Source: a virus (taxonomy: Duplodnaviria; Caudoviricetes). From it: 64,000 nt of DNA. Within the stretch, counting starts at the first letter, position 1. Each line of letters starts with the position of its first letter. The stretch is from IMG/VR virus record IMGVR_UViG_3300028888_000005, positions 1-64,000 of that record. One strand, given 5' to 3'. Shown piece by piece: positions 4,965-38,500 of the stretch. The position numbers were made by a program, and so were the translations under genes. A model generated the notes under the pieces. That model was not told the DNA's origin. It saw nothing but the letters and a program-made list of their open reading frames with translations, and did not search any database.

Positions 4965-5870
4965 TTACTGCTCTTTCTTGGATTCCTGTACCTGTTTCTG
5001 TAAGCTGAACAGCAGCTCCTGCTGACGCGGACCCATCAGATAACGGGCAGCGTTGGTAAGGGTAGGATTCTCACCGTCCTTGCACAATGGGCTGTTATCA
5101 GCTTTGTTATAATAAAAGTCTCCGCGTTTTGCTACGAGGCCAGAAGCGACACACTGACGCAACAGCAACTTGGTTGAGAACAACTCATCCTTGATGACTT
5201 TAAGGAAGAGCTTGGGGTCAGCCTGAATGAGCTCATTGATCTTAGTCTGAAGATAAGCCTCGGAGGTGTTGAATGCGAGCTCGTCTCCAGTGATGGAGAG
5301 GATGACAAAGCGCATAGCGTCCTTGTCGTGCTCGATCTTACCAAACTCCTTGTAGCTCATCATCGTGTTGCTCATCTGTTGCTGCGCGTTACGTGTCTCA
5401 TCATCTGCTCTCAGTATCACAAACTGATAAGTGGCTTTAGGACGCTCTTGCAGGGTCTCAATGTCAGGAGCAATAAAGTCCTTGTTAGCCAATGCGATCT
5501 TATAACGGATGTAGTCATTGGGATTGCTCAAGTCCAGATAAGTATCGTCCTTGCCCAATACAATGTTACTGATTCCGTTTACATTAGCATCTGACCAGAA
5601 GTTATTCGCAGGTTTGTTGTACACGCTAAGTGCATTGTACTCCATACCCATGATATGCTCGAGATAGTCTTTCTCGTCTTTGGTCAGCACATTGACGTAT
5701 ACGCCACTCTTCAGTTTAGGCACACAGAAGGTTCTTGTGGCACCCTCACCAAGTCCACCATAGAGGACATGTTTGGGGTTATCGACAAGCCCAGTCTGCT
5801 TAGGAATGTGCCTGATCGTGATGCGCTCATTGCGCAGACAGTTTTTCAATTCGTTCTGTTCTTTCTCCAT
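4965..5870 (-). CDS. conserved crAss protein downstream of major capsid gene
   Basis: About 301 aa from the likely ATG at 5870; position next to the MCP gene. Confidence 0.65.
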   Translation of the reverse strand: MEKEQNELKNCLRNERITIRHIPKQTGLVDNPKHVLYGGLGEGATRTFCVPKLKSGVYVNVLTKDEKDYLEHIMGMEYNALSVYNKPANNFWSDANVNGISNIVLGKDDTYLDLSNPNDYIRYKIALANKDFIAPDIETLQERPKATYQFVILRADDETRNAQQQMSNTMMSYKEFGKIEHDKDAMRFVILSITGDELAFNTSEAYLQTKINELIQADPKLFLKVIKDELFSTKLLLRQCVASGLVAKRGDFYYNKADNSPLCKDGENPTLTNAARYLMGPRQQELLFSLQKQVQESKKEQ

Positions 5871-11868: not shown

Positions 11869-12156
11869 TTATTTACTTTTAGGAGTGTATTTAAGTATAT
11901 CACTCCTGCGCCAGTACTTCTCCTTAAATCCTGCCTGGTGCTTACCTTCTGGTAGAAACCCGTCCCTTACAAGATTATCAAATGTCGCTCTGCTTATATT
12001 CAGATACTGGCAAGCCTGATACTTACTCATTCTGTTATCAGTTATTTCAGAGAGCATAGAGATGATTTTCTGCTCTTCATCCTCAGTTATGTTGGAATTA
12101 CCGGCATCAATGTCATCCAGTAATTTGACCAGCAGCTTCCTTATTACACTTAACAT
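11869..12156 (-). CDS. excisionase/AlpA-type HTH protein
   Basis: MSKYQACQYLNISRATFDNLVRDG. Confidence 0.65.
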   Translation of the reverse strand: MLSVIRKLLVKLLDDIDAGNSNITEDEEQKIISMLSEITDNRMSKYQACQYLNISRATFDNLVRDGFLPEGKHQAGFKEKYWRRSDILKYTPKSK

Positions 12157-12700: not shown

Positions 12701-14938
12701 TCAGTCATTATTAATGTCACCTCCAGCCATCAGGATGAAGTTGACGATGTTAGCGATTCTTCTTCCTGTCTCATAATTGCGGTACATGTACTTGTCGGCA
12801 CTATCACCGCTTTGCGCATACTGGCTGCGCTCTGCCCACATCTGCGACACGTTGAGGTTGATGAAGAACGTGGGGATATCGTAGTTGTCGAAAGCGTAGT
12901 CACCGCACGTTGCGCCTGCGGTACTCTCAACATCTGGTGCATCCTCTCCTCGGTCATCCTCAAGATGGTTGCAGTAGTCAGTCAGCCATGTGGGTTCCGT
13001 GAGGTTCTTTGGGATGATTACCTGCGTCATGTAGTCGGTTGAGTAGTCGGGTTTGCCAACCGTAGATGCGGTGGTTTTCAACTCGCCGCCGCTGATTAGT
13101 GCGATAGCATCCGAATGGTCATCAATCCAATCAACGAAAATTCCGCTATCAGCAAAAGTTCCAACTCTCTCGCAACCATTTGCACCAACCTGCCATTTTT
13201 TGAACGTGCTAAATGAGTTATTTAAACTGCGAAGTCTGGCTTCGGCAGAATCATTGTTTCCAGAATTGATGTCGATACATGGCAGCACGACAATCGTGTA
13301 GTTCTGCTTGATTGTCTGCAAGAACGATGATTGGGAAACGATGTAGTTATTGCATAAGTACTCGGCAAGGACATACATACCGAACTCGGTAATCTTGTTG
13401 TCAACACCACATCGCATTGAACCACCCAAGAGCAACACCTTCTTATTGCCGTTTCCAAGCGTATATGAGTAGATGCTATCACCGCTTGAATTCTCGCCCA
13501 ACTTTGCCGACTTGGTGACATAGGTCGGGGAGTTTTCAACAAGCGCATCCCAGCGAGCATATACATCTGCAAATGTGACTTTCGTATGACTTGTTGTTGT
13601 GTCGGTACCGTCCATTCGCAAGCCCTGCCTCGTCATTGAAAGCGGGTAATCCCAATGGAAGTACTCGGCATTGGCATCCTCGTTGATTATCCAACCTTTG
13701 GTATTAATCATCTCATAGGCATAGATGAGCAGGTTGGCACGAATGCGAAGTGAGCGTGTCATCTGCTCTGCGTTGAACGTGTAGCCGAAATAACCGCCGA
13801 TGTACTCTGCCACCGATGCGAGAATACCAAGCGTGGAGTTTGCCCAAGCAGAAGTAGTGCCTGTGCTATACCCGCTTGCGTCATTAACATTCGGGTGAAC
13901 ATAACCGTATTCGTCGGCATCGGCATTTTCAAAGTCCCGATAGTCGGTGCCGCCAGCGAGACGCAACCTTTCCTCCTCAGCAATCAGGTCGGCAAGCAGT
14001 TGTCGTGCCATCACCGCATTGGCTCCATCCATGTTGTAGTTGAACCAGAAATGCTTATAGACATCACCGCCATCATGGTTATCGAACAAGTAGTCGATGT
14101 TCTCTACACCGATAGTGTCAATGATATGCTTGACATGGCGCACCTCGCTGCGCTGGAATGGATAGTTGCCAGCACGTCCAGTTCCGTCAATACTATACTG
14201 ATGAATGAAGTCGAAGTTGCGGTTCATGTTCATGCCGTAATCGCCTGCTTGATTGGTGTCGTGGAACACATCATTCCAGTCAGTCCAAGGCACATTCATC
14301 GACGAATGGTCGAAACCCCAAGGATTGACGCAAGGCACTACGATGAATCGAACATTGTCACGCAGCGGCCTCAATCGTGAATAAGCCGACTCGTTGCAAT
14401 GGTTGCAGATGATGTTGAAGATACGCAGTATTGTCTGCGGTGCGTCCTTCTCGTTTCCGTGAATACAAGCCTGCACATAGAACGTCTTGGTGTAGTTGGC
14501 AGGGGTGAACTCATAGTGCCATAGCGGATAATCGCCATAGCCATCCTCGCTGTACCTCGTCTTGGTGATAGTGCCAAGATAACTTGAATTGTCCTTCAAG
14601 TCATCGTAGGCATCTATCAGCGTTTCATAGTTGTACTTGTTGTAGGTGGATGCCTCTTGTGTTGGAGGTAGCCACAACCCTACCGATGGTGGTGTAGGCG
14701 GTTCGGGTATGTCACTACCCACCTGCACATCGCCAAAGTACAATCCGTCTGCCTTGCGGATAAGGCCGACACTATTGCTGGACTCGGCAATCACCGCTCC
14801 GTCAAGGTAGAGTTTGTTACCGACTACATACAAACCTGCCCTATTCAAACTGCCACCATTGGCCACCACAACCCCGTCAAGCGACAGGGTTCGGATAGTG
14901 CCGTTGGATATTTCGATTCCGTTTGCCATTATTTCCAA
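12701..14938 (-). CDS. protein with tandem M14 zinc-carboxypeptidase/deacylase-like domains (probably virion)
   Basis: Domain 1: IHGNE, VNPWG, NMNRNF, DNH. Domain 2 is parallel but lacks HxxE. Confidence 0.7.
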   Translation of the reverse strand: MEIMANGIEISNGTIRTLSLDGVVVANGGSLNRAGLYVVGNKLYLDGAVIAESSNSVGLIRKADGLYFGDVQVGSDIPEPPTPPSVGLWLPPTQEASTYNKYNYETLIDAYDDLKDNSSYLGTITKTRYSEDGYGDYPLWHYEFTPANYTKTFYVQACIHGNEKDAPQTILRIFNIICNHCNESAYSRLRPLRDNVRFIVVPCVNPWGFDHSSMNVPWTDWNDVFHDTNQAGDYGMNMNRNFDFIHQYSIDGTGRAGNYPFQRSEVRHVKHIIDTIGVENIDYLFDNHDGGDVYKHFWFNYNMDGANAVMARQLLADLIAEEERLRLAGGTDYRDFENADADEYGYVHPNVNDASGYSTGTTSAWANSTLGILASVAEYIGGYFGYTFNAEQMTRSLRIRANLLIYAYEMINTKGWIINEDANAEYFHWDYPLSMTRQGLRMDGTDTTTSHTKVTFADVYARWDALVENSPTYVTKSAKLGENSSGDSIYSYTLGNGNKKVLLLGGSMRCGVDNKITEFGMYVLAEYLCNNYIVSQSSFLQTIKQNYTIVVLPCIDINSGNNDSAEARLRSLNNSFSTFKKWQVGANGCERVGTFADSGIFVDWIDDHSDAIALISGGELKTTASTVGKPDYSTDYMTQVIIPKNLTEPTWLTDYCNHLEDDRGEDAPDVESTAGATCGDYAFDNYDIPTFFINLNVSQMWAERSQYAQSGDSADKYMYRNYETGRRIANIVNFILMAGGDINND

Positions 14939-20009: not shown

Positions 20010-22676
20010 TTATTGCTCTTTAATAGTAACTTTAACTACATTGCATTGGTTGGTAAAGGCTTTGACTCTACGGTTGCTTAGGTCAGGGGCACCGATAACC
20101 AGATTGTTGATAGTGGATCCAGATATATAGGTCCTTCCTGTATCAGCTATGCACTGATTGACAAACTCCCAATAAGTGGAATATTTACCAATGACATTGT
20201 TTACAATAGTATGATATTTTCTTGGTGCACTAAACCCAAACTTATTTGTGATATCGCCGTAATGCCCTTCAATGTGTGCGCCGTATACATTCTTATCAAG
20301 CGTAATACCAAAGCCACGATTGTCCTTAAAGCATACGTTATTACTATGGAACACCCTAAATCCACTGTTGCCATAGATATTCTCACAATCTGTTACAAAA
20401 AAGTCACAGTGATGGGCGCTCTCTTCGATATCAGCGAACTGTGACTGAGTGCTGAAACCACCATCAAAAGTGCGACGCTCCTGGGAGATAGAATACATGT
20501 AACAGGAGTCAACAAAACACTGAACAGCCTTCTTGTTATCAAACAAGCTGGAACGGTGGTCATGGAACACACAGTTACGGAAACCGCTGCATCTCGAGAC
20601 CTGATGCCCTATAGCAAACGGCTGACCATAATACCTATCAAGTTCAGCTTTATACTGAATAAGGTTGGTGTCAGCTACATTCTTATCATTTGAGCCGAAT
20701 GAACTAAACCCTAGATACTGTGCATTCTTTGGAACCAATACGGGCCCTACATCATAGACCTTTGCTGTTTTTATAAACTCTGCGTTACTGTCGTAGAAGT
20801 GCACAAAGCACTCACGGTTAACAAGCTTAGAGTAGAAGCCACGTGTTTGTCCGTTGCCTTTTTCAATACACATGAAATCACCGTATACGAACTCACCAGC
20901 TGAACGGAAGGAAAGCCTTTTAGCGTATCCGTAACCAACCTTCTTTGTCGTGCCTATAGGTAAGTATTCTGTCGGAATATATAACTCTTCTGTAGGCTTG
21001 GTAAGGCAAGTACTGCATCCAGGGAAAGAGTTATAGTATGCTGGTGGGTTTGCAGTCGGCACCCATTGAAAGAAGCCCCTAAATGGTCCTCCATCTGTTG
21101 TTCTTATTGTCAGACGTGGTGACTGAAGTACAGAGGAAACATCTTCGTCCCTTGAGTGCCATACAGTATCTGACACGTGCTGTTCACCATTGTAGTCAAT
21201 GTACCCAACACTGTTGTAAGGCATCGCGTGTGTAGGGTAATTCACATGGTTTTGTCTGTCATTAAATGAATCGTCGTTTTCAATACCGGCATCATATCCT
21301 AAAGCGTTAGAAATGTCGCAATTCTCATAATAACAGAACTCACATCCCCACAATGCAACAACACCAGTCCACTCAGTGTTAAGGGTAACCTTTGTCTTAT
21401 CAAAGTATTTATAGTTACCGCGAATCTTGCCGTTTTTAATGATGGTATCAAAGTTGTTGCCCATAGCCGCAACTACCGCAGACTGGATATCATCTACCTG
21501 AAGGACGCTGATAGTGCTGCCGTTCATATCCAAGGTAAACCTATCAGGAAACTGTATATATGACCCACCAGTATACCTGTACTTATCATCACCAGCATCA
21601 ACCCACTGGCGGTCTATAGTACCGTCATCTTTCAAGAGATGAAAATCTGTGACTATGTGAAGCCCATGTAGAAGCTTTAGTGTGCAGCGTCTCTTTCCAG
21701 CATAGGCTTGTGCTGCCTCCATGAGTCTGGTTAGGGCTATCTTATTCTTAACGGCAAGCACCCTAACTTCAGGAGGAACATCAGCGGGATCGTAGGACAG
21801 ATAGTCTGACATTGGAACACCATTATAGAACAACGTTAGCGTATAGGGGTTACCAGGATCGTCATTGCTTATCTTTTCTTTCTTAGTTGATGTTGCTGCA
21901 TATGGAACTCCAGTTTGTGGGTTTATATAAGAAGCCCATCCACGCACGTCAAACCTGTAGATGTAGCCACCATCCAATGGATCTGAACTTGAAGTATTAT
22001 CACTAACGCCAATAGTGATGCTCTCAACAGTACTACCCGTCATATTTACGTCCACAGTATAACCAGCTATTATAGTCTTCTTTACTGCGTATATACCTTT
22101 ACCTTCAAATTTTGTGCTGGCGTTGCGGATAGTATTGCCCTCAGCCGAATCAAGGTAAGCGCTATCGTTTGGGTTTGTTGAATCGGAATAATTAAAACTA
22201 CTGGTAAAGTGACGATCAACAGACAAATCAAGAACGCACTGCTCCTCATCCGGGTCCTGAATCATGAATTTATAATATTTTGTTGCAGAACCTACCCCCA
22301 TAGAATCAACGCACTGGATTGATATGGTGTGTACACCAACGTCACCAATACCGAACTCACCGATCTCAACAACCTGGCACCCACCAAAAGAAGTGCGTTT
22401 CCATGTACGCGGAACACTATTAATATGCTCATCTAACTTTACAATGGTAGTGTACACATGCTTAGTATCCTCAATGAACGTGGATGTGGTGTCATCACCA
22501 CACTGCTCCCTATCATGTGCATCAATAATAGTATATGGTAACGCAAGATACTTCTGAGTGTATGGTATGCGTTCATCAAACTTTCTGATGAATAACTGCG
22601 GACTAAGTACAGAGTGAAACGAAGTATCGCACTCCACACACTCCCTTATCTCGTTTGTATAGTTATTAACAATCAT
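20010..22676 (-). CDS. putative beta-helix tailspike/depolymerase
   Basis: FTLDMNGSTI, IIKNGKIRG, YENCDISNALG, FRNCVFHD beta-helix-like repeats. Confidence 0.55.
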   Translation of the reverse strand: MIVNNYTNEIRECVECDTSFHSVLSPQLFIRKFDERIPYTQKYLALPYTIIDAHDREQCGDDTTSTFIEDTKHVYTTIVKLDEHINSVPRTWKRTSFGGCQVVEIGEFGIGDVGVHTISIQCVDSMGVGSATKYYKFMIQDPDEEQCVLDLSVDRHFTSSFNYSDSTNPNDSAYLDSAEGNTIRNASTKFEGKGIYAVKKTIIAGYTVDVNMTGSTVESITIGVSDNTSSSDPLDGGYIYRFDVRGWASYINPQTGVPYAATSTKKEKISNDDPGNPYTLTLFYNGVPMSDYLSYDPADVPPEVRVLAVKNKIALTRLMEAAQAYAGKRRCTLKLLHGLHIVTDFHLLKDDGTIDRQWVDAGDDKYRYTGGSYIQFPDRFTLDMNGSTISVLQVDDIQSAVVAAMGNNFDTIIKNGKIRGNYKYFDKTKVTLNTEWTGVVALWGCEFCYYENCDISNALGYDAGIENDDSFNDRQNHVNYPTHAMPYNSVGYIDYNGEQHVSDTVWHSRDEDVSSVLQSPRLTIRTTDGGPFRGFFQWVPTANPPAYYNSFPGCSTCLTKPTEELYIPTEYLPIGTTKKVGYGYAKRLSFRSAGEFVYGDFMCIEKGNGQTRGFYSKLVNRECFVHFYDSNAEFIKTAKVYDVGPVLVPKNAQYLGFSSFGSNDKNVADTNLIQYKAELDRYYGQPFAIGHQVSRCSGFRNCVFHDHRSSLFDNKKAVQCFVDSCYMYSISQERRTFDGGFSTQSQFADIEESAHHCDFFVTDCENIYGNSGFRVFHSNNVCFKDNRGFGITLDKNVYGAHIEGHYGDITNKFGFSAPRKYHTIVNNVIGKYSTYWEFVNQCIADTGRTYISGSTINNLVIGAPDLSNRRVKAFTNQCNVVKVTIKEQ

Positions 22677-25069
22677 GATGCTACACTGCCATTTACTGTT
22701 ATTCTAACATTAGTGTTTACTGTAATACCATTAATCTCAAATTCTGTATTGCCGTTCAGTGTACCAAAATTTGTATTAATTGGCGACCCAAGTCTTGGGT
22801 TTACCCAAGAATGTGAAGATAGATAGCAACCAGATTTAGCTCTGATTTTGATGCCGCTAATTTCGGTGCCTGGAGATATAAGGAAATAATAACTGGCTAT
22901 ACCGTAAGTAGTGCCTGAGTAAATGACGTCATACCCAGCATTGTCATACACTTCACAATTCTCATTGATGTTGATAATGACAATAAAGGGCCATACAACG
23001 TACCTTGTTGTCATGTCACAATAAATTATGAATGGGTTGTTTGCGGCATGAACAGCGGCAAGACGAGCCAAAGAAATGTTTGTGTCGGTAAGACCACGTG
23101 AGATAGAGGCCCTGCTGTTATCAGGAAATGTTCTACTGGACACCCAGCTATTATCTATATTCGGAATAGTGGCACTGTCAGCAACAGATAAACCACATTC
23201 ATTGTAATATTTTTTGAACAGGGCCTCAATGATTGTAATCGAGGCAAGATAGTGTGGCAAACCACCGACAAGGTGGGAGCTATCATAAGTCATATCGTTG
23301 TATTCAACATTATTCGTAACAGTTGTGATGTCATGCAAAGCCTGATAGTTTCGACCATTGACGATACCAGTTCCATACGGGAAAACAATCTTAATATCCG
23401 AATCGCTTTGCTGTAGCTCATTAATATTAAGCAAAATATCAGTAGGCAGGTTATTGATGCCGCCATTCGGGTGATTAATACTGAAACCAAAGATATAGTC
23501 TGTATTAAGGGTTTTACCAAAAGCCCTCATTGTCTCACTAATACTAGACTTCACACTGCCAAAACCGTTATAACTGCTTCTGATGTAAGAAGAAGTTGAT
23601 GTCTGCTGTAGAACAATGATATCCCAATCTCCGTTATTGTATTGAACGCATTGTTCACCTGTCGGCAGATAATGCGTAACACCGTCCACGACTTCAGTGG
23701 ACTTACCTATAACTGCAGTCCATTTGGCTCCATCAACTGATGTATCAATGTAGGAGAATCCCCTGTTGGCATTAACGCCACATTTATAACTGGTTCCTTT
23801 GTAGGTATCCAGTCCAGCCGAAGCTATATAACACAAACCAAGCTTAATGTTAATTCCAGCCTGTTTGAGAAGATAAGGAACATAAGACCACGAATCCAGT
23901 GTATATGAATTGCCGAGCACAAGGATGCTAGGAGCATCTTCGTACTCACCAGGTTGAGGCTGATTACCCCACGAAGCGGCGGCTTCTTGCCTTAGCCGTT
24001 GGGCAAGCAGAGAGCCCATAGAAGCATTACCGGCGGCATCAGGATGTACAGAGCCATCAGCCCATGTCATGTCTTCTATATCATCATAGAAGTTAACCAC
24101 AGGAAGCGAGTATTTTCGTGCTAATGCTTCGATGATACTTTTTATGCTTAAACTTCCTGATTGCGGAGTAAAGCCAACATCAAAGTTATTACTAATAGAA
24201 ACAGTCTTTGGCGGGACGCAAAGAACAAGAATTGCGCTCTCTTTCTTCTCATCGAGTATCCTTAGGATGGCCTCTTCGTACGCGTAACTGAAGTAGTTCC
24301 GCTTGTTGGTCGGGAACTCAGATGGTCCCGAATAAGGGATATCATACACCTCTCCGCGTTTGAATGCAGTAGACACATTCTTACAGTAGGCAGCATCATT
24401 AGTTCCCAGCATTAGTGTTATTATGTCATATGAACCCCAGTTTATGTTAGTTGGACCTTTGTATCCATTGCCTACATACTGTGCATTATTGCCTGCGGTT
24501 TCAGGCACAACGGCTGTTTCGTTCCCTTCAACCATTTCATAAAGGAAACTGCGCAACTGCGGTGCATTACCCGATGTAACGCTGTAGCTTTCTGAGTAAG
24601 TCATGGTTGATCCTGATATGCCGATGTCGGTGACGTTGCTCTCAGGTATGCCGAGGATTGCAGCAGCTTTATAACAGTACTTTTTTAACCCAAACGGAGT
24701 AATGGTCGGATCAGTGATGCTATCACCGCAAGCAATATATTTCACATTTTCCCATGAAATAGGTTCCGATGGAGTGGAACCACCTTCTCTGATAGACCTG
24801 AACAAGTCATTAATTTTCCTGACAAACACAGGTGCATTATCGTTAACAGTAACATGCTCAAGTGAAGGGTTACTTTCAGCCCGAATTGAAGCATTAACAC
24901 TATCAACAACTGCCGTTGCGTTAGAAGCATAATCAGGCTTTGGTACATTAGCACCCTGCTCATTTATAGCTTCACGAATACGGTCAATCACCGTCTTTGC
25001 ATTATCGTTTATATTTATATCTGTAGGCATAATCTTGTTATCATTCGGTGAATGGGTCTTTATGTTCAA
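22673..25069 (-). CDS. protein with two SGNH/GDSL esterase-like domains (probably virion)
   Basis: CGDSIT, GISGS, LGTND, D..HP; second domain LGNSY...D..HL. Confidence 0.7.
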   Translation of the reverse strand: MNIKTHSPNDNKIMPTDININDNAKTVIDRIREAINEQGANVPKPDYASNATAVVDSVNASIRAESNPSLEHVTVNDNAPVFVRKINDLFRSIREGGSTPSEPISWENVKYIACGDSITDPTITPFGLKKYCYKAAAILGIPESNVTDIGISGSTMTYSESYSVTSGNAPQLRSFLYEMVEGNETAVVPETAGNNAQYVGNGYKGPTNINWGSYDIITLMLGTNDAAYCKNVSTAFKRGEVYDIPYSGPSEFPTNKRNYFSYAYEEAILRILDEKKESAILVLCVPPKTVSISNNFDVGFTPQSGSLSIKSIIEALARKYSLPVVNFYDDIEDMTWADGSVHPDAAGNASMGSLLAQRLRQEAAASWGNQPQPGEYEDAPSILVLGNSYTLDSWSYVPYLLKQAGINIKLGLCYIASAGLDTYKGTSYKCGVNANRGFSYIDTSVDGAKWTAVIGKSTEVVDGVTHYLPTGEQCVQYNNGDWDIIVLQQTSTSSYIRSSYNGFGSVKSSISETMRAFGKTLNTDYIFGFSINHPNGGINNLPTDILLNINELQQSDSDIKIVFPYGTGIVNGRNYQALHDITTVTNNVEYNDMTYDSSHLVGGLPHYLASITIIEALFKKYYNECGLSVADSATIPNIDNSWVSSRTFPDNSRASISRGLTDTNISLARLAAVHAANNPFIIYCDMTTRYVVWPFIVIININENCEVYDNAGYDVIYSGTTYGIASYYFLISPGTEISGIKIRAKSGCYLSSHSWVNPRLGSPINTNFGTLNGNTEFEINGITVNTNVRITVNGSVAS

Positions 25070-28058: not shown

Positions 28059-30491
28059 TCAACTCTTGCCGCCGCTAGACTTCCTTGCGGTGATGGACTG
28101 CTTTTGCAGTTCTTCCTTGCGGCGGTTGCTGCGTTCCTGTTCTCGTTGTTTATCTCGGTCAAGGGCTAGGCGCTTGTCAAACTGCCTGATGCTCTCTTGT
28201 AGTTTGAGCCTCTCATCCTCTGTCTGAGGCACTTCGACTCCATCATTGCGTGCATCTGTCTGGTACTTGATAGCTGCGGCCTGAATATAACCTTCAGCCT
28301 CAAGCTGCGATGCGAGAACCTTAGAGTCGTTATCTCTCTGGTTCATCTTATCCTTCAGCTCACGTTCAGCCTGTGCCTCCTGCGCCTGAGCTTCCATTGC
28401 CTGCTGTTGCATCTGCATAGCCTGCTGCTGTTGCTGTTCTGCGGCTTGCTGTTGCTTCTTCTCGGCAGCTTCAACCATTCTGCGCTTCTGAGATAAGGAT
28501 GCAGTGCTGTACAGCTTCATCATCGTAGAGAACGTGATAAGCTGATTCTGTAGGGCTGCCTGTGCCAAAGTGTCGAGGTTCTGGTTAAGCTGCTGAGTGC
28601 CAGTGCTGTTGTCCACTACGAGACCGTAGTCATTCTCAGAGAACTGGTCACCATCTATCTCCTCAATGATAGAACTGCCATCATCAAGCAGGAAGCGGAA
28701 CTTCTTCTTGCGACCACGCAGAGCAATCTTAGCTGTCTCTATAAAAGCTTCAAGTACTCTACGTTTAGTATTATCGTGCTCAGCAAAGAACCACTCGGTG
28801 ATATGGGTGCTCTGCAACGTACTGCGTTCAACACCGCCTACAGTCTCACGGGAAGCGATCTGTCCTACACGCTGCTTAGTAATACCAGTGACATCACCAA
28901 TTTCCTGCTTAATGTATTCCAAAATGTTCATGTGCTGCTGGATAACATCACCAGTTTCCGCATCGAGTACAGAGTAGTTATTGTTCATGCTGGCTGGCAT
29001 CTTACCAGTAGCAGGACCCTCTTGGATGACGTTAGCACTGTCGTACACAGCGAGGTTATTAGCCCTGGCATAGTACAGCCACTTGTCAATCTTCCAGCCA
29101 GATGGGATCTTTGCAAGATCAAGAGGAACAATCTTACCCCAGTTACGGGCAATCAGCTTGTTCAGCCTGTCATGGATGACATCATAGAGGTATGAGAAAG
29201 GTTTAATGCGATCAACAAGAGAGAAGGGCCTGCAATCATTATCCATATAGACAGTACCGATAATACCGAAATGGCAACGGCTTGGATTGCTCATCCTATT
29301 ATACTGAACAGGACAGGGCCCCATATTAACATAGATACTTTCGCCGATCTTGACACCTTCCCATGCCTGATTGATCCAGAAGATCTCTTCAGTCTCACCG
29401 GCGGCAGGGTCAATCCTATACTGCTCAGTATAGAAGTTGAACTCCTCCCTGCCGTTCTCATCATAGGATTTAACCTTCTTAATCTTACGTCTAGACCTCC
29501 AGTACATGTGGATAACACGCACATTACCAGCCAAATCGTAAGGCAAAAGATTGTCATAGCCTTCAAGAGTACCGAAGATATCGGAGAAGAACATACCATT
29601 GCCGTCAGCCTGGTCGCTAATCATGAAGTTCGGAAGGAAAGCACGCCGTTCGTCAATCTGGTCCATAGAGTTAACGGAACCCTTACCGACACTCCTAGGA
29701 AGCTCCTCGATGTACTTTATATCTTTAGCAGTGAGCTGGTCATAGTAAGTATCAATGACTCTGCCAGGCGACCAGTAATCCTCAAGAATGATAATATCGG
29801 CATCCTCAAGCCTCTGACTATAGCCAGACATAAAGGCACGTACCTTCATCGGATTAAGCTTCCTTAGCACAGGCTCGCCGCCTTCAATGGCGCATTGATA
29901 GATTTCCTCGCCGACAATGAGCCCGTCCATGAAGCCTTTATTGAAGATAGTGCCAAATGACTGCTCACGCCAGTAATGAGTGAGCAACCTGTTTGCACGG
30001 AGCTCACGCTGATCCTTGTACTCAAACTGGAAATAATCACTGAGCTTATCCATGTTGGCCTGATACATCTGGTCATCCTGCGACTGGTTCTCTACCTGGG
30101 CCTGAAGAGCTTGGAAGATAGCATCACGCTTAGACCTCTCGACCTCAGACACTGCATCAGGATTAGTAACAACAACCTGATAATCAAAGACACGAGCAAG
30201 TTCCTCACCACGCAGAACCTCGAGGCTGGCGTTGATGATAGGATAGTGCTGTATCTTGTCAGGAATATATTCGCTCTTGACATGGTCAGGATTCATCATG
30301 TACTCCAAGTCTTCCATGTACAAGATGCCGTTGACCAAATCGTAGTTGATCTTTTTCTTCTGTACGCTCTTCCTAACTGGACTGAAATTGAACAGAGACC
30401 TGTCATCAGCCCAATCTAGATGCTGCTTCCTCCACTTCTTATTCTTGCTGCGGAAGGAAAGCTGCTGGCGCGGTATGTCTACATTAAACAC
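28059..30491 (-). CDS. portal protein
   Basis: 810 aa, IPRQQL start, KIQHYPII, RETVGGVERS, Q-rich C-terminus; TACTTTTG box at 30512-30519. Confidence 0.9.
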   Translation of the reverse strand: MFNVDIPRQQLSFRSKNKKWRKQHLDWADDRSLFNFSPVRKSVQKKKINYDLVNGILYMEDLEYMMNPDHVKSEYIPDKIQHYPIINASLEVLRGEELARVFDYQVVVTNPDAVSEVERSKRDAIFQALQAQVENQSQDDQMYQANMDKLSDYFQFEYKDQRELRANRLLTHYWREQSFGTIFNKGFMDGLIVGEEIYQCAIEGGEPVLRKLNPMKVRAFMSGYSQRLEDADIIILEDYWSPGRVIDTYYDQLTAKDIKYIEELPRSVGKGSVNSMDQIDERRAFLPNFMISDQADGNGMFFSDIFGTLEGYDNLLPYDLAGNVRVIHMYWRSRRKIKKVKSYDENGREEFNFYTEQYRIDPAAGETEEIFWINQAWEGVKIGESIYVNMGPCPVQYNRMSNPSRCHFGIIGTVYMDNDCRPFSLVDRIKPFSYLYDVIHDRLNKLIARNWGKIVPLDLAKIPSGWKIDKWLYYARANNLAVYDSANVIQEGPATGKMPASMNNNYSVLDAETGDVIQQHMNILEYIKQEIGDVTGITKQRVGQIASRETVGGVERSTLQSTHITEWFFAEHDNTKRRVLEAFIETAKIALRGRKKKFRFLLDDGSSIIEEIDGDQFSENDYGLVVDNSTGTQQLNQNLDTLAQAALQNQLITFSTMMKLYSTASLSQKRRMVEAAEKKQQQAAEQQQQQAMQMQQQAMEAQAQEAQAERELKDKMNQRDNDSKVLASQLEAEGYIQAAAIKYQTDARNDGVEVPQTEDERLKLQESIRQFDKRLALDRDKQREQERSNRRKEELQKQSITARKSSGGKS

Positions 30492-30577: not shown

Positions 30578-32938
30578 TCAGTGCTTCAGCGCATCAAAAT
30601 CAATGATGGGACCAACTCGCATATATTCATCCAATTCTCTTTTCCATGCACTCTCGGAACCGAACCTGTCATCAAAGTTTTCCTGAAAATATGTATCGTT
30701 AGCCAACGGATTTGTATATTCATACGCTTTGTCTCCTGTCTTACCGCCGAATGCAACCAACCTGTCCTCACGTAGAAGCATAAGCATGATATTAGCACTG
30801 ACACGGTCAAAGTTGCCCTGAGGGTTCCATGCTGCAAGCTCTTGAAGATACGCATGGTTACGGATAGTAAACAGTCTTGGTACATCCACAATCTCATCCT
30901 CTCCGTGATCATTCTTAGTTGTCATAGGAACCAACTCACGTAAGTATTTTTCGATGAGCTCACGTCCATAATTATTCACAGGCTCGGTAGCCTTTGTGCC
31001 TTTAGTTGTGTTGCCATAAGTAGGAACCTTCACGTTGAACTTGTCTTTAACAATCTCAAGGGTATCGGTGAGAAGATATGCGCTATGCATCTTAGAGAAG
31101 TATCCGAACAAACCTTTCTTATCATTCTCGTAATTAAGACGGGCATCATAGAACAGACACAGTCGCCTGCATATCTCATAGAAATCCTCGGCAAGGATGG
31201 GTCTGCCAGTGTACTCAGCAACTATCCTATCCGTCCACATATCCAGAATAAATATACTGCCAAGAGACGTGGTGCCGCTGACATCATCGTCATAAGGGTC
31301 GGCCCCTGCAATGTACCTATTGGAGTATACTTTGTTTGTCTTTTTATCCTTTTCGGGCATCTCAAAGATCTCAACAGCTCCGATCATGCCCTTGTTGTCT
31401 TTGTGTGGAAATTGTCTAATCGGCTCAGCAGCAGCAGGTTTGAACTCAACCTCACCAGATGGATTGATAGCTAACTCACCGCAATAAGCGTTGTCATAGA
31501 ACCTTGGATTGCTGTCAATCTGAAGCAAACGCTCCATAATATCAGTGACAGGGAAACGAGACGTGTTAACCTGGATGATAGCTTCGGCAGGGGTGATCGG
31601 CATCTCAGCAGTGACCTTAACGATTGTCCTCGGGTCTCCTGTCTGATACTTAGCTTTGTATCTCTCCATAAGCAGGAACAGCAGAGAGTCCACAACATCG
31701 CTTACGCCATCCTCGTTGTATTTACCTTTGATGTTAACATAAGCAGGGAAGAAGAAGCAGAAGTAGGGTCTTCCCTGATTAGGTTTATCCCATACATTAG
31801 GAAGTGCATACACATCGTAACCCATTGGACTGTAGAGGATTTCCTTTGCACCAAAGAAGTCGCTGTCTTTATCACCGGCAGTACCTAACGCATAGGAGAA
31901 GGCATACTTGATGCCACCTTCCTCAGTACCATACTTGGCGATGTTCCATGTCTCGATAAAGTTAGGGAATGAACCAAACTCCTCCCACAGAAGGTAGCCA
32001 CGCTTACCACGGACCTTCTTAGGGTCAGTGTCCACAGCGATGCCAGACACAGAGTTTTGTGTGCCCATGTTTGCTCCTGTCACTTTATCTTTGAAGCCAG
32101 CAACCCATGTCATCTTGTTTGAGGAGTCAAATAGTGTGCGCTTAGGAAACTGCGTGTGCTTCTTGACAAAGTCGATGTTAGGAGTGAACTTAGTGAGTGT
32201 GCCGTCACTACCAGACAGATAAGTCATAGAGGCGGCGACAATGAATGTAGCAAACCTCTTGTGTGCGTCCTTGCTTTCACCGAGAATGAAGTTGCGTGTG
32301 GCAATAGACGCTAATGAGAATGATTTACCGCTACCACGCTTAGAGAGCTCTACAGCATGAGTACCGCCCTCAAAGTTGTTGTACTTGCCGCCATTGCGTG
32401 CCTGATCAATGTAGTGAAAGCGCCAGTATACACCTTCCCATACCTCAGGAAAGCCTTCAGTACGTGAACCAACCTTACTGCCCTTCTTCGCTTTCGTAAG
32501 CATGATAGGGCAATAGTTGATGTAGTAATACATCAATCCAGGTATCCATTCTCCATCTTCTGGTCTGACCATTCCGTCCCAGCAGCGTCTTACTTCCTCG
32601 TCAAGCCACTTACGATACTGAGAGTTAGGATTGCTGTTTGGTTTAAGATCAGTATACCTGCCATACTTCTCAAAGTGTATAGCAGACTGCCTGAAGTAAT
32701 CCATGTTCTCGATGATGTGTGGATTGGCTAGGTCAACAATGATCCTACCACGTTTATCCCTAGGAAGGTCCTTAGCACGCTTCCTATCAGGAGATATAAG
32801 CGCAGAAATAAAAGGCACGGAGCTGATAAACTCCATGAACTGCTCACGCACTTCCTGTGGATACGAGGAGAGCAACTCCTCAGTAATAGGAGTCTGGTAC
32901 TCGTTTGTCTGTACTATGCGATCATTCTTCGATACCAT
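30578..32938 (-). CDS. terL: terminase large subunit
   Basis: KRGSGKS Walker A, WEEFG Walker B, GTAG, GADPYD and NFDRVSA nuclease motifs. Start ATG 32938 is more likely than 33028. Confidence 0.9.
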   Translation of the reverse strand: MVSKNDRIVQTNEYQTPITEELLSSYPQEVREQFMEFISSVPFISALISPDRKRAKDLPRDKRGRIIVDLANPHIIENMDYFRQSAIHFEKYGRYTDLKPNSNPNSQYRKWLDEEVRRCWDGMVRPEDGEWIPGLMYYYINYCPIMLTKAKKGSKVGSRTEGFPEVWEGVYWRFHYIDQARNGGKYNNFEGGTHAVELSKRGSGKSFSLASIATRNFILGESKDAHKRFATFIVAASMTYLSGSDGTLTKFTPNIDFVKKHTQFPKRTLFDSSNKMTWVAGFKDKVTGANMGTQNSVSGIAVDTDPKKVRGKRGYLLWEEFGSFPNFIETWNIAKYGTEEGGIKYAFSYALGTAGDKDSDFFGAKEILYSPMGYDVYALPNVWDKPNQGRPYFCFFFPAYVNIKGKYNEDGVSDVVDSLLFLLMERYKAKYQTGDPRTIVKVTAEMPITPAEAIIQVNTSRFPVTDIMERLLQIDSNPRFYDNAYCGELAINPSGEVEFKPAAAEPIRQFPHKDNKGMIGAVEIFEMPEKDKKTNKVYSNRYIAGADPYDDDVSGTTSLGSIFILDMWTDRIVAEYTGRPILAEDFYEICRRLCLFYDARLNYENDKKGLFGYFSKMHSAYLLTDTLEIVKDKFNVKVPTYGNTTKGTKATEPVNNYGRELIEKYLRELVPMTTKNDHGEDEIVDVPRLFTIRNHAYLQELAAWNPQGNFDRVSANIMLMLLREDRLVAFGGKTGDKAYEYTNPLANDTYFQENFDDRFGSESAWKRELDEYMRVGPIIDFDALKH

Positions 32939-33146
32939 ACATGTCACGTAGCACATCACGCACTGCCTGCATGGACGGGTTTGTCTTGTATGGTTGCTCA
33001 GGATCTGATTTCTTCTCCCATGCGTCATACTGCTGTGCGTTGTAGTCGTTCATAATGTCATCAAGATTATGGAAACCACGACGTACATAATCACGCATGA
33101 TGTCAAACTTTTCTTCCTGGCTTAAATCTGTCCAATTTTGTGCCAT
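32922..33146 (-). CDS. small hypothetical protein
   Basis: 74 aa, protein-like composition, overlaps the terL start. Confidence 0.6.
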   Translation of the reverse strand: MAQNWTDLSQEEKFDIMRDYVRRGFHNLDDIMNDYNAQQYDAWEKKSDPEQPYKTNPSMQAVRDVLRDMYGIEE

Positions 33147-35656: not shown

Positions 35657-35872
35657 TTATGAATAACCCTTTAGTGTGTTTCTGCGGTCCTTAACATAAG
35701 ACTCGCCGTATTTCTTGATATACAGTGTTTCCCAGTCGTAGATGTTGGGAAGCTGCCCTATGTCAGTGCTACCACATTCACGACAGAAATCCTGTCCGTC
35801 AATGGTCTCTATGCCGAGACTACAGCAACGACGGCAGTAAAAAACAGGATCGGTGTCCTCTTTGCGTATCAT
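35657..35872 (-). CDS. Zn-ribbon protein
   Basis: CRRC...CREC. Confidence 0.65.
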   Translation of the reverse strand: MIRKEDTDPVFYCRRCCSLGIETIDGQDFCRECGSTDIGQLPNIYDWETLYIKKYGESYVKDRRNTLKGYS

Positions 35873-36045
35873 CTGTAGTACACAAGGACGTACCCTGATG
35901 GTATAGAATCCATGTACTTAAGCTCTTTATCAGTGACCCCGATCTCATTAGCGCGTTTGATAACAGCGCTGAGGTGCGGCTCCACGATTACACGAAGCTG
36001 TTTCTTCTCTGTCTTCTTGTTTTCTGATTTCTTTTCGTTTGCCAT
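35869..36045 (-). CDS. small hypothetical protein
   Basis: Likely start MANEKK after TATTTTTG box at 36065-36072. Confidence 0.55.
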   Translation of the reverse strand: MANEKKSENKKTEKKQLRVIVEPHLSAVIKRANEIGVTDKELKYMDSIPSGYVLVYYR

Positions 36046-36129
36046 GATCGTATTAATTTCTGCGCAAAAATACAACCATTAGACAAATATTGCAAGTTTT
36101 TTAAGTACTTTCGTATAAAAATAAAATAG

Positions 36130-37287
36130 TTATTCACTAATACCCAATACGTAGTCAATTACTGTGCGGTTAGCTCTGTCTATCTTAGAGTGGTCAAATG
36201 TGATGTAAACATCAGTAACTGTATTCTGTGAGTGCCCTAAGGATGCGGATATGGTCTCTTTGGGGATATCAAGTGATGCAGCTATAGTGGCCCATGTGTA
36301 TCTGGCACAGTATGTAGTCAGCCCATGTACACCAATGCTAGTGCCGATAGGTTTAAGATGCCTGTTAATCATACACACCAGTGTGTGCGGGCTACGATAC
36401 TTCCTGACCCAGTCCATCACGCTCCAAAGTTGTTTAGCTTCCGGTTGTAGCTTGAACTCATAGTATTTACCGGTCTTCTGCCTGTTATACTTCACCTTTG
36501 TGGTAGAGGTGTCTGCCATGTGCCACAGGTCAGTCATGTTGATGCCTATCATATAGAACGAGAGCAGGAAACAGTCACGGGCATTCTTTTGCTCTCCATA
36601 TAAATCCAGGGAGATAAGCGTACGGAGCTGTTTCACTGATAGACTTCTTGGTTGATGTCTTTCGTGGTATATCTTGAACTTCCTGAACGGATAATTGAGT
36701 GTGATTCCGTCATCTATGGCTGCGTTGAACACAGCACGGAGATTACGGAAGTGTACAGACCTTGCATTAAGTGACGGACATCCATGTTCACTGAGCCACT
36801 TATCAAACTTACGTAACCAACCGGGGTTAATGGAGTCAAACAGCACAGTGCCCATAGCAGGATTGTACTGAATCAGTCTGCTAATGGTAGACTTATACAC
36901 GGACCTTGTGTTTGGTTTAGGTCTTGTTTCCATGAACTGCATCATGTAGGGAAGCACAAACTTAGTGCCTATATCTCTGTGCAGTTCAGTTATGATAATC
37001 TCCTTCAGTTGGGCGGCTTCTATATCCCTCAGTGCATACCCACCACCGAGCCTAAGCATCACATCCTGTGCAGACAGGAGCATACGATTAGCGTCTATGG
37101 TGAGCTTCCTTGCGTCAGGATGCCGTACAACAACCAGCCTGCGTTGGTCCCACTGATCTTTACGCAACTTGATACCAGTAGGAGCATAGCAGGTCTTACC
37201 GTTAGATGAGAATGACAACTGTAGTGAACGTAGGCTGTCCACGGTGTACCTAGTCCCGCGTGACAGGCATAATGTTATCTTGGCCAT
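36130..37287 (-). CDS. int: tyrosine integrase, Bacteroidetes type
   Basis: Arm-binding-like N-term (TGIKL..DQWD), core-binding region (RNLRAVFN), catalytic-region GINMTDL, RQKTG, YCARYTWA, LGH, TDVY; TAACTTTG box at 37315-37322. Confidence 0.9.
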   Translation of the reverse strand: MAKITLCLSRGTRYTVDSLRSLQLSFSSNGKTCYAPTGIKLRKDQWDQRRLVVVRHPDARKLTIDANRMLLSAQDVMLRLGGGYALRDIEAAQLKEIIITELHRDIGTKFVLPYMMQFMETRPKPNTRSVYKSTISRLIQYNPAMGTVLFDSINPGWLRKFDKWLSEHGCPSLNARSVHFRNLRAVFNAAIDDGITLNYPFRKFKIYHERHQPRSLSVKQLRTLISLDLYGEQKNARDCFLLSFYMIGINMTDLWHMADTSTTKVKYNRQKTGKYYEFKLQPEAKQLWSVMDWVRKYRSPHTLVCMINRHLKPIGTSIGVHGLTTYCARYTWATIAASLDIPKETISASLGHSQNTVTDVYITFDHSKIDRANRTVIDYVLGISE

Positions 37288-37396
37288 AGTGTGAAGTATT
37301 GAGGTTGAAGGCCGCAAAGTTAACAAAAATGTCTACAGTTTTTCTACCATAACAGTAAAAATATCTACGCATTTTGTTCAGTGAGCAGTATGTAGA

Positions 37397-37433
37397 AAGA
37401 AAACACAGGAGCTTTCACAAGTCCCTGTGTTTC
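37397..37433 (-). terminator. terminator downstream of tRNA fragment
   Basis: AAACACAGG..CTT-GTGA-AAG..CCTGTGTTT followed by a U-rich tract. Confidence 0.75.
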
Positions 37434-37496
37434 TGGCGGAGTGACCGAGATTCGAACTCGGGATACGCTTTTGACGTATACACGCTTTCCAGGCGT
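37434..37496 (-). mobile_element. attP: 3' part of tRNA-Ser(GGA)
   Basis: ACGC-CTGGAAA-GCGT anticodon arm, long variable arm, CCGAG-TTCGAAT-CTCGG T arm, TCACTCC-G-CCA. No D arm or 5' acceptor strand upstream. Confidence 0.85.
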
Positions 37497-37582
37497 ATCA
37501 CCGCCATCAGTAAGTGCCTAATAATCCAATCTTTAACATTATGAAGAAAAATAGTTCTACGCTTCTTCTATATTTGAGAGAG

Positions 37583-37760
37583 AAAAACCGCGCCGCTTCA
37601 CAGGGGCACGGCTTCAACCTTCTAATACCATTAACATAAACCTTTTATCACTTCATCATGCTTATTACGGCCTAAACATTGATTTCCCAATCAGATAAAA
37701 AACCAATAAACCAATGAATCATTACTACTTTCACTCATGAAAAAATCTTACACTTCTTAC
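37583..37760 (-). ncRNA. candidate sRNA A
   Basis: TATCTTTG box at 37766-37773, U/G-rich body, GUGA-loop terminator at 37583-37613. Confidence 0.6.
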
Positions 37761-38242
37761 GTGTGCAAAGATAGCATGAATATCCGTAAACACCAAATAT
37801 TTATCAGAAAATCATGCAGATTAGTGTAAACTTTTTGCTGTGCAGATAGGGTGCACAGGCACTCGTAGTAGACATTCTGCGCAGAAAAACACCCCCATAT
37901 AGTTCCATTTCTGTGCATATCCCCCACCCTTTTGTACGGAATTTCTTGTTGTGTACAGGTTCACAAAGTGCCCACTATTAGTACAGAATCATTACGTACA
38001 GTACATAATGTACATGCAATAATAGCGTACAATCTGTGCAGAAAATGTACGGTAATTTGTGCAGACGATTTGCAGAGAGTCTATTGTATATCGCGTATGA
38101 GAGAAAGGGTTAATTTGACAGGATTTATTATATGTCGCGTATACGGAAATAGTCCCCCCGTACCCCACCCTATTACAGCGCGAAGGGTAATGCCCCCCTC
38201 TTCGATGCTGTTATGTTCGGGGGCGCATAGGAGAACCAAGTT

Positions 38243-38500
38243 ATGCAGATCAACCTGCAAACCCCAATCAGTGCCCTGAAGGGCCAGTCATTCGTCCTGC
38301 TTCAGGACGGCAGTGTTAAACTCAACGGCACCAACGCCGACCTGTACATCAGTCCTGAGATCTTCGCGATGCTCAAGGCTGAGTTCGCCAAGGCTGAGGC
38401 CAAGCGCAACCTGGGCCAGTTCGTGGTCAACCGCAGGGTTAAGACCGTGAACGGCAAGGAGTTCACGAGGTATGAGGTGCGCTTAGGCATGACGCTCTGA
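38243..38500 (+). CDS. small early protein
   Basis: Strong codon bias; followed by a UUCG terminator. Confidence 0.75.
   Translation: MQINLQTPISALKGQSFVLLQDGSVKLNGTNADLYISPEIFAMLKAEFAKAEAKRNLGQFVVNRRVKTVNGKEFTRYEVRLGMTL

Follow-up and report, generated by a model that had tools for sequence, protein, structure and literature searches.

A tyrosine integrase beside a tRNA-Ser(GGA) fragment marks a probable integration module in a crAss-like phage from the sheep gut

We analysed the first 64 kb (hereafter the window) of a complete 100,589-bp genome of a crAss-like phage from sheep gut, which has terminal repeats and a completeness score of 100 %. The window contains a tyrosine integrase gene (int) and a putative attachment site (attP) with the following features, all read on the minus strand:

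36130..37287 (-): tyrosine integrase gene (P0001, 385 aa, IntCTnDOT-type), from ORF, domain and alignment evidence
37315..37322 (-): Bacteroidota-type -7 promoter box TAACTTTG upstream of int, from the consensus TAnnTTTG
37325..37375 (-): P′ arm with candidate arm-type integrase sites, from repeat motifs
37400..37433 (-): intrinsic-terminator hairpin and U-rich tract just past the tRNA 3′ end (-16.5 kcal/mol, z -3.4)
37434..37496 (-): attP core, the 3′ part of a tRNA-Ser(GGA), from identity to the host gene
37549..37567 (-): P arm with one more arm-type repeat, GCGTAGAACTATTT, across the core from the others, from the repeat motif
37588..37603 (-): terminator-like hairpin and T run in the P arm, from the hairpin

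The major capsid protein (5979-7493, minus strand) matches Pfam Crass_capsid over its full length (E 1.5e-194), and the large terminase subunit (TerL) and the portal protein match the PHROG terminase large-subunit and portal families (phrog_6681 and phrog_6547). TerL is 55 % identical to that of IAS virus and 49 % to that of crAss001. The crAss-type major capsid, the TerL and portal genes and the genome size of about 100 kb are those of Crassvirales. The gene for the giant RNA polymerase that this order packages in its virions would most likely be found beyond the window. The phage is a Steigviridae-like crAss phage, and the unusual point is that such a phage carries an integration module. Phage genes continue on both sides of the int-attP region, as an earlier note made from the sequence had stated: the crAss major capsid, portal and TerL lie to the left and small early genes to the right.

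The integrase ORF spans 36130-37326 on the minus strand; from the ATG at 37287 it encodes 385 aa with the MAKI start seen in all homologues. The protein matches Phage_int_SAM_5 (E 3e-14, 53.5 bits) and also PHROG integrase families. The match to Arm-DNA-bind_5, a domain recorded for many homologues, is borderline (20.9 bits, slightly below the cut-off of 22.6). The Pfam catalytic-domain model Phage_integrase had no match in the protein, and the catalytic domain was recognised by phrog_216 and by a profile alignment to XerA; a PDB search with the single sequence found nothing, while the profile search succeeded. The arm-binding, SAM_5 core-binding and catalytic domains together form the architecture of the IntCTnDOT subgroup. 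In the alignment to archaeal XerA (4a8e), N250 stands at the Arg-I position, Y326 and R329 at HxxR, H352 at His-II and Y361 at the nucleophile, and the His-I position is occupied by a Tyr. The residues invariant across the clade include R269, K271, Y326, R329, H352 and Y361, with Tyr326-x-x-Arg329 as a motif, so that K271, R329, H352 and Y361 of the IntCTnDOT catalytic set are kept and the Asn at Arg-I is followed downstream by the invariant R269. Members of this subgroup are documented to lack the first Arg and to have one located downstream in its stead (PMC8138268). Because the catalytic domain is divergent (Phage_integrase unmatched, Asn at Arg-I, Tyr at His-I), we predict the activity of the enzyme by analogy with IntDOT and from conservation. 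The identity is only about 40 % to the nearest cellular integrases, which are from Muribaculaceae, and 23-40 % to the integrases of known Bacteroides phages. No close homologue was found in 50,697 GenBank phage records, where the best matches (40 %) belong to non-crAss Bacteroides phages. Among named large phages, only Dulem virus 40 gave a weak integrase match; it was set aside as it has no crAss capsid.

Promoters of Bacteroides have the -7 consensus TAnnTTTG. Five relatives carry TATCTTTG at the place equivalent to the window's box, and the description of an intact-looking tyrosine integrase with a promoter box of its own was borne out. Between this box and the core, candidate integrase sites of the form GTAGA-N-ATTTTT lie at 37325-37336 and 37357-37368, with GTAGAAAAA at 37339-37347; the 12-mer occurs at these two places only within the 64-kb window. 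GTAGA-type candidate repeats are thus found on both the P′ and the P arm. The locus with an integrase 80 % identical (L002) shares the GTAGA motif, and each relative has a repeat family of its own at the same places. The element GGCGCGGTTTTTCT of the P-arm hairpin is also present in the attP of a relative (L003). We read 37400-37433 as a terminator, as had been proposed, because a stable hairpin precedes a U-rich tract; in the integrated state it would end transcription of the rebuilt tRNA gene.

The attP core, 147 nt upstream of the int start codon, spans the anticodon stem and loop, the variable arm, the T arm and the acceptor 3′ strand to CCA. Positions 37436-37496 are identical at 61 of 61 nucleotides to positions 29-89 of the complete 89-nt host tRNA-Ser(GGA); the match reaches 37434 (63 nt, with the encoded CA) in hosts that encode CCA and 37430 in hosts whose tRNA gene continues CCAGAAA. 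The int gene is adjoined by the 3′ part of a host tRNA in a copy identical to that of the host. The resemblance to a tRNA is not a matter of chance, because a 58-nt stretch of it is exact in 53 species genomes. The D arm and the 5′ acceptor strand are absent, as the earlier note had observed. It had named a complete tRNA at this place, or a second copy delimiting a small passenger element, as findings that would count against its reading, and we recovered neither: ARAGORN found no complete tRNA anywhere in the window, Rfam gave no tRNA match at E<=1 in the window (only weak matches to a plastid 3′UTR element and SpF41), and the complete 100,589-bp genome holds the tRNA block in a single copy, on which ground a passenger element was rejected. 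Pairing between the 5′ flank (UGGCGG..UGA) and the acceptor 3′ strand can yield a closed cloverleaf devoid of a D arm (z -2.9). By eye, similar pairing is present in L003 and L064 and lacking in L008, L063 and L185; we accordingly rejected a tRNA-like RNA without a D arm as a conserved feature, and the pairing may be left over from the capture of a whole tRNA.

The 53 genomes with the exact 58-nt match are nearly all from herbivore gut and are labelled Muribaculaceae, Sodaliphilus or Bacteroidales. The 5′ half of the tRNA is common to all but one of these loci (the exception, L022, has another 5′ acceptor strand), and two of the contigs end inside that half. By its exact match to the single tRNA-Ser(GGA) gene of these bacteria, the fragment identifies the host as herbivore-gut Muribaculaceae/Sodaliphilus, in line with the proposal that it could serve to do so, and the exact-match core offers a marker for assigning hosts to rumen crAss phages.

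The phage itself was found in excised form only, in two assemblies. The second is ENA assembly ERZ27257205, in which the same phage forms a 100,603-bp contig with the same attP arrangement; this and the completeness of the genome with its terminal repeats are why we regard the contig as the free, excised form, as had been suggested. A protein look-up for an integrated copy returned nothing but excised contigs, about 100.6 kb in length. Logan contigs (k=31) from four sheep/cattle runs all branch or break inside 37436-37496, a stretch with a summed depth of 669 as against 56 in the phage arms, and one Logan contig of the source run passes 37430 into a host-type terminator. This breakage speaks neither for nor against integration, because the 61-nt repeat hides the difference between attP plus attB and attL plus attR. 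The clade integrase was absent from the 53 exact-match loci and from five whole candidate host genomes, and neither this integrase (at E<=1e-90) nor Crass_capsid was detected in 401 sampled genomes of the host family. We treat the missing lysogens as weak negative evidence, because binning of metagenome-assembled genomes often drops phage contigs.

About 30 clusters share 56-83 % identity with the window integrase, the 83 % case lying on a 1.4-kb contig that begins inside the core. All 13 clade loci with upstream sequence (the window and L002, L003, L005, L007, L008, L063, L064, L156, L184, L185, L186 and L187) carry the tRNA-Ser core, around which the flanks and arm repeats have fully diverged. 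In every case the core block starts within tRNA positions 22-31, on the 5′ side of the anticodon loop, and the position of int-attP between the replication and structural modules is kept in all relatives. At this module junction a neighbouring clade encodes another integrase (20-25 % identical), accompanied by a tRNA-end-like stretch and repeats of its own. The tRNA-end-like stretch beside the L166 integrase, which is of this second type, was absent from 301 sampled Muribaculaceae genomes.

One relative, here called phage B, was recovered in both states. It is 60 % identical to the window phage in the integrase, 75 % in TerL and 77 % in the portal protein. A 52-kb contig (L003/L144) holds its attP; its attL, in which ARAGORN calls a complete 89-nt tRNA-Ser, lies on L004 (72 kb) and L006, and its attR on L143 (36.7 kb, with about 27 kb of host DNA), L145 and L147. 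The phage parts of these contigs are 99.96-100 % identical and the alignments end at both core edges. The host flank of attL is 80-84 % identical to the DNA upstream of the tRNA-Ser in host genomes, and that of attR matches, at 80-86 % identity, the DNA downstream in L011, L056 and L051, in which both flanks adjoin a single tRNA-Ser. A complete tRNA thus stands at one junction and a displaced 3′ part at the other. The host junctions called for in the earlier note were in this way found in a relative, and phage B, with the same module as the window phage, demonstrably integrates at tRNA-Ser. As this relative occurs both free and inserted at the tRNA gene, a branch of a group described as non-integrating can integrate into the host chromosome.

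The integrated contigs of phage B might also be assembly chimeras formed through the 59-62 nt common to phage and host, the more so as the shared repeat breaks the k=31 Logan contigs in every run. We give this explanation almost no credence. The attL and attR junctions each come from at least two samples and from two differently named assembly sets, and both junctions co-occur within each of two samples. Three contigs bear names in k141_, which we take from the naming convention to denote the largest MEGAHIT word size, 141; such a word is longer than the repeat, so reads would have to span it. Moreover, uninfected genomes have the two host flanks as neighbours, 1-2 kb apart with one tRNA-Ser between them, an arrangement not to be expected of random chimeras.

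That the window phage itself integrates at tRNA-Ser(GGA) is probable from its homology with phage B. No CI-like repressor or excisionase was recognised, the ten neighbouring ORFs giving no useful Pfam or PHROG match, and the genome contains no HTH_3 domain. There is a sub-threshold HTH_17 match at 11887-12018, and a 71-aa zinc-ribbon-like ORF adjoins int; the repressor and excisionase of this phage may be novel proteins. The lack of recognised regulators, the excised state of the phage, the lysogen-free host-family genomes and the non-canonical catalytic motifs would all fit a relic, in which an ancestor integrated, the integrase or attP of the window phage no longer works, and the phage is lytic or lives in a carrier state like cultured crAss phages. 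We hold this to be unlikely. The ORF is intact with every clade-conserved catalytic position present, the promoter box and candidate arm repeats are kept, and the 61-nt core has preserved 100 % identity to the host gene although its surroundings have diverged among relatives; furthermore, phage B has the same non-canonical motifs and is integrated.

It is very improbable that the recombinase serves another purpose, either as a Cre/lox-like resolver of plasmid-like prophage multimers or as part of a small passenger element. For the prototypic crAssphage, the life of a non-integrating phage-plasmid has been proposed (PMC10983915), and the different integrase at the same junction in the neighbouring clade suggests a swappable cassette. 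A resolution site, however, would not need an exact copy of the host tRNA 3′ end, the one core copy leaves no boundary for a passenger element, the int-attP position is constant among relatives, and phage B uses the site for chromosomal integration.

We consider it very probable that the window contains the integration module of a temperate Steigviridae-like crAss phage of herbivore-gut Muribaculaceae. In the mechanism that we propose, the terminally redundant genome would circularise after injection, and the IntCTnDOT-type integrase would bind the arm-type repeats on both sides of the core as well as the core itself. The tRNA-Ser(GGA) 3′ part in attP would then recombine with the identical host stretch (attB), most probably with crossover in or beside the anticodon loop; Williams (2002) reportedly distinguished an anticodon-loop sublocation class among tRNA-gene att sites. 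The prophage would land immediately behind a complete, restored tRNA-Ser, the 3′ part and terminator of which the phage had supplied. At attL the order would be host, tRNA, terminator, int and structural genes, and attR at the far end would hold the displaced host tRNA 3′ part. The position of strand exchange, the roles of the repeats, and the upkeep and reversal of lysogeny are the parts of this proposal that we infer.

Reviews and papers up to 2026 call Crassvirales strictly lytic or devoid of integrases (PMC10136315, PMC12788396). The statement in the earlier note that cultured Crassvirales are generally described as non-integrating agrees with the mainstream, but it is challenged by 12 catalogued crAss-like prophages from pig gut (PMC12454387) and by modules with integrase, excisionase and repressor in mouse Intestiviridae and Zeta (PMC13503771). 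It has long been asked how crAss-like phages can stay so abundant while their host populations survive, and a plasmid-like state has been proposed in the case of crAssphage (PMC10983915). Phase variation and a carrier state are other proposed routes. For a lineage that falls into one family-level group with the cultured crAss001, the present case adds base-resolved att sites and the name of a host group, and with resolved att sites and both states in metagenomes, classical lysogeny becomes directly testable in Crassvirales. The integrase-attP pair is a candidate tool for site-specific integration in Muribaculaceae. More broadly, we see about even chances that chromosomal lysogeny is regular in the whole herbivore-gut Steigviridae-like branch and arose more than once by capture of an integrase-attP cassette at the replication/structural junction, one clade using a Muribaculaceae-type integrase at tRNA-Ser(GGA) and the neighbour clade a different integrase. 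If this broader reading is true, Crassvirales would gain their first att system known to the base, and lysogens and genetics would come within reach for the group. The mechanism itself is a textbook one. Because it is conventional and crAss-like prophages are already catalogued, the value lies in the resolved example and its lineage and not in a new principle.

The window phage agrees with Steigviridae (the beta crAss-like group with IAS virus and crAss001) in its capsid, portal and TerL families, its genome of about 100 kb and its two divergent gene blocks. It differs in having an integrase, whereas the cultured members lack lysogeny genes (PMC6235969), and integrase modules were seldom detected in Steigviridae in the 2026 mouse catalogue (PMC13503771). 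With the catalogued crAss prophages and modules (PMC12454387, PMC13503771) it shares the computational nature of the evidence for temperate Crassvirales. Those catalogues, as far as their consulted text goes, give prophage-caller results or annotation counts and no att sites, while the present case gives attP, attL, attR and the target gene at single-base resolution and concerns another lineage and another host family.

Like the integrases of the IntCTnDOT subgroup (IntDOT of CTnDOT and those of NBU1, NBU2 and Tn4555), the window integrase combines arm-binding, SAM_5 core-binding and catalytic domains. Insertion at the 3′ end of a tRNA gene (Leu and Ser) is likewise a property of NBU1 and NBU2. 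Further likenesses are the displaced first catalytic Arg with a conserved Arg downstream, as in IntDOT, and the Bacteroidota hosts (PMC8138268). Unlike in the subgroup, the His-I residue is Tyr, the Pfam catalytic model is unmatched and the carrier is a phage and not a transposon. Finally, the module resembles tRNA-gene integration by temperate phages and integrative elements in that Int adjoins attP, the orientation would rebuild the tRNA gene, the phage would supply a new terminator, and candidate repeats lie on both arms; the difference is in the carrier, which is a 100-kb crAss-like podovirus and not a lambdoid phage, a P4-like phage or an ICE.

The integrase gene and its attP lie where the gene strands of the phage diverge, with minus-strand genes to the left of about 37.3 kb and plus-strand genes to the right of about 37.9 kb. 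The earlier note had described here an integrase with its own promoter box, the last 63 nt of a tRNA-Ser(GGA) and an adjoining terminator, and each of these was recovered.

Features of the integrase module and of the packaging genes to its left
28059-30491, minus strand: portal gene (PHROG portal family)
30578-33028, minus strand: TerL gene (PHROG terminase large-subunit family)
36130-37287, minus strand: integrase gene int, 385 aa (P0001; Pfam and PHROG)
37315-37322, minus strand: promoter box TAACTTTG, fitting the Bacteroides -7 consensus, TAnnTTTG
37325-37336, 37339-37347 and 37357-37368, minus strand: GTAGA-type repeats on the int side, candidate arm sites (sequence motif)
37400-37433, minus strand: hairpin with U-rich tail directly 3′ of the tRNA end (-16.5 kcal/mol, z -3.4)
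37434-37496, minus strand: tRNA-Ser(GGA) 3′ part
37549-37567, minus strand: GTAGA-type repeat on the opposite side of the core, candidate arm site (sequence motif)

The stretch 37436-37496 agrees at 61 of 61 positions with nucleotides 29-89 of a host tRNA-Ser(GGA) gene that is complete at 89 nt, and it runs from the anticodon stem and loop across the long variable arm and the T arm to the 3′ strand of the acceptor; two further bases finish the CCA. As had been claimed, it lacks the D arm and 5′ acceptor strand; ARAGORN called no tRNA in the entire window, and Rfam gave no tRNA match (E ≤ 1, 36000-38500). A second copy, which could have delimited a small passenger element, was also looked for, and the stretch is single-copy in the complete 100,589-bp genome. 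The 12-mer GTAGA-N-ATTTTT does not occur in the rest of the window, and a GTAGA-type motif is shared by L002, a contig with an 80 % identical integrase; these repeats would be arm sites. Pairing between the phage flank at 37497-37508 (UGGCGG..UGA) and the acceptor 3′ strand at 37434-37443 (minus strand) is possible and would close a cloverleaf without a D arm, which may be a remnant of a captured tRNA that was once complete. By eye, similar pairing is seen in L003 (where ARAGORN calls a poor 85-nt tRNA) and L064, and is not seen in L008, L063 and L185.

P0001 has a Phage_int_SAM_5 domain, a borderline match to Arm-DNA-bind_5 and matches to PHROG integrase families. It belongs to a clade of about 30 clusters with 56-83 % identity, outside which identity falls to about 40 %, the level seen with integrases on the chromosomes of Muribaculaceae (for example Paramuribaculum and Duncaniella). 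Among 50,697 GenBank phage records no close homologue was found; the best matches are 23-40 % identical, and those that were checked are not crAss-like. The residues R269, K271, Y326, R329, H352 and Y361 are invariant in the integrase alignment. In a profile alignment with the XerA structure 4a8e, Y326-x-x-R329 corresponds to H-x-x-R, H352 to the second His and Y361 to the nucleophile, and N250 falls on the first catalytic Arg (GIN versus GLR). These non-canonical motifs fit an active integrase family, because in the IntCTnDOT subgroup of Bacteroidota the first Arg is weakly conserved and is functionally substituted by a downstream Arg (PMC8138268). In five relatives, TATCTTTG occupies the position of the promoter box.

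The same tRNA-Ser part was present in all 13 clade loci with sequence upstream of int (the window, L002, L003, L005, L007, L008, L063, L064, L156, L184, L185, L186 and L187). The only IMG/VR relative with at least 75 % TerL identity whose upstream flank reaches int, L163, has the module as well. Many short-word contigs start or stop within the core, as expected since the assembly graph branches there. The identity block begins, depending on the phage, at tRNA position 22, 27, 28, 29 or 31; in every case this is 5′ of the anticodon loop (positions 33-39), and the block extends through to the tRNA 3′ end. The core flanks are unrelated among clade phages, and the short direct repeats that lie on both arms form a different family in each phage.

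Both states were observed for phage B, a relative with the same module (60 % identity in Int, 75 % in TerL and 77 % in the portal). Its attP is found on a 52-kb contig (L003/L144), where it separates the replication genes from int, TerL and portal. The attL contigs, L004 (a 72-kb scaffold with about 67 kb of phage) and L006, carry in order genes for a PIF1-type helicase and an Endonuclease_1 protein, a complete tRNA-Ser(GGA), the phage terminator and int. In attR (L143, a 36.7-kb scaffold with about 27 kb of host DNA, L145 and L147) the phage replication arm is followed by the tRNA 3′ part and host genes (GSCFA and a Mur ligase/alanine racemase fusion). The phage portions of the three forms are 99.96-100 % identical, the alignments stop exactly at both core edges, and attL and attR co-occur in samples ERZ28653820 and ERZ27256836. 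The attL host flank matches the DNA upstream of host-genome tRNA-Ser genes with 80-84 % identity over 4.7 kb, and the attR flank matches the downstream side in the host loci L011, L056 and L051 with 80-86 %; in these three, the two flanks lie around a single tRNA-Ser, the downstream one set off from it by 1-2 kb of extra DNA. Such a pattern is what a phage of about 98 kb would be expected to leave on site-specific insertion. The three genomes have no prophage at this tRNA-Ser, and their extra DNA, between tRNA-Ser and the GSCFA gene, is missing at the attR of the lysogen; it may represent a variable island or what is left of other elements integrated at a hotspot.

An exact match to the 58 nt between G31 and the discriminator base (both included) is present in 53 species-representative genomes, almost all of them MAGs from the guts of goat, sheep, cattle, buffalo, yak, deer or horse; their labels are Muribaculaceae, Sodaliphilus, and unclassified Bacteroidales or Prevotellaceae. 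Almost all have one tRNA-Ser copy, and in all but L022 the 5′ half of the gene is the same (two contigs end within that half). Some hosts have CCAGAAA after the discriminator, as in the window, so that identity reaches 37430; in the source run, one contig spans the core as far as 37430, from where it enters a host-type terminator. If the rebuilt gene is the only tRNA-Ser(GGA) gene of the host, this would account for the phage copy being conserved exactly. In L022 (uncultured Prevotellaceae RUG379, about 5307-5350) the 5′ acceptor strand reads TCCGCCA instead of GGAGTGA, which could be a scar or junction of another element at the same gene.

The module anatomy, the exact host-gene match and, in a relative, the products of integration and excision were observed; the window phage would probably integrate at tRNA-Ser(GGA) as phage B does. 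Strand exchange would take place in or beside the anticodon loop, because the start of the block falls on the anticodon stem in six diverged phages, and because the gene can be rebuilt only if the element brings all sequence 3′ of the crossover. The only forms in which the window phage itself was recovered are free genomes of about 100.6 kb from two assemblies, and Logan contigs cannot resolve att junctions. The clade integrase was absent from the 53 exact-match loci, five whole candidate host genomes and 401 sampled host-family genomes, and the last set also had no crAss capsid gene. No repressor or excisionase was recognised by Pfam/PHROG on ten ORFs near int or by an HTH_3 search of the genome; the ORF at 11887-12018 has a sub-threshold HTH_17 match. 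A 71-aa ORF directly downstream of int (35657-35872, minus strand), conserved in all relatives, resembles in ESM Atlas a 'transcription factor' fold of the zinc-ribbon kind (feature score 0.95, TM 0.87 to viral clusters) and is a candidate regulator or directionality factor.

In three of four runs, Logan contigs reach a summed depth over 37510-37645 that is 10-70 times as high as over the phage arms (679 versus 46-56 in the source run), and contigs split at 37645; something abundant in the sampled runs has this stretch in common with the window phage. One contig of the source run consists of the core and three more phage bases (to 37499) followed by more than 255 nt of unrelated sequence, which suggests that this sample also contains another element whose own attP uses the same tRNA-Ser.

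Judging by its genes, the window phage is a crAss-like phage. Its source record (100,589 bp, of which the window is bases 1-64000) has direct terminal repeats and a completeness score of 100 % in IMG/VR, and Pfam Crass_capsid matches 5979-7493 (minus strand) over the full length (E 1.5e-194). We place it in the beta group because of its TerL identities to IAS virus (55 %) and Bacteroides phage crAss001 (49 %); the group is named Steigviridae in PMC12454387, and IAS virus is named Betacrassvirinae in PMC7981956. Two large proteins of the structural module (22673-25069 and 12701-14938, both minus strand), with GDSL lipase/DUF4886 domains and a zinc carboxypeptidase (M14) domain, may be tail-associated enzymes working on the host surface.

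Integrase cassettes seem to have been acquired more than once in rumen crAss-like phages, since in a neighbouring clade (TerL about 60 %) three contigs, L166, L179 and L180, have another integrase at the same module junction and other members have none within 8 kb. This 384-aa tyrosine integrase (L166:1763-3330, on a 79-kb IMG/VR contig) has Arm-DNA-bind_5, SAM_5 and Phage_integrase domains and is 20-25 % identical to P0001. In L166 it adjoins a stretch resembling a tRNA 3′ end, GGTTTGAATCCCTCACCTTCCGCA, with many GTATTATA repeats around it; the stretch was absent from 301 sampled Muribaculaceae genomes.

Crassvirales are still mostly described as non-integrating (PMC10136315); a marsupial study of 2026 restates this view, integrases not having been found (PMC12788396), and no integration was seen for the prototypic crAssphage (PMC10983915). 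A pig-gut study of 2025, by contrast, lists 12 crAss-like prophages (PMC12454387), and according to a mouse catalogue of 2026, Intestiviridae and Zeta have integrase, excisionase and repressor modules, which are rare in Steigviridae (PMC13503771). Our literature search, which was not exhaustive, found no att sites for any crAss-like phage. The window phage would use the textbook mechanism of a tRNA-gene attP, with an integrase of the IntCTnDOT type; the mechanism is known, and the unusual part is its carrier, a crAss-like phage.
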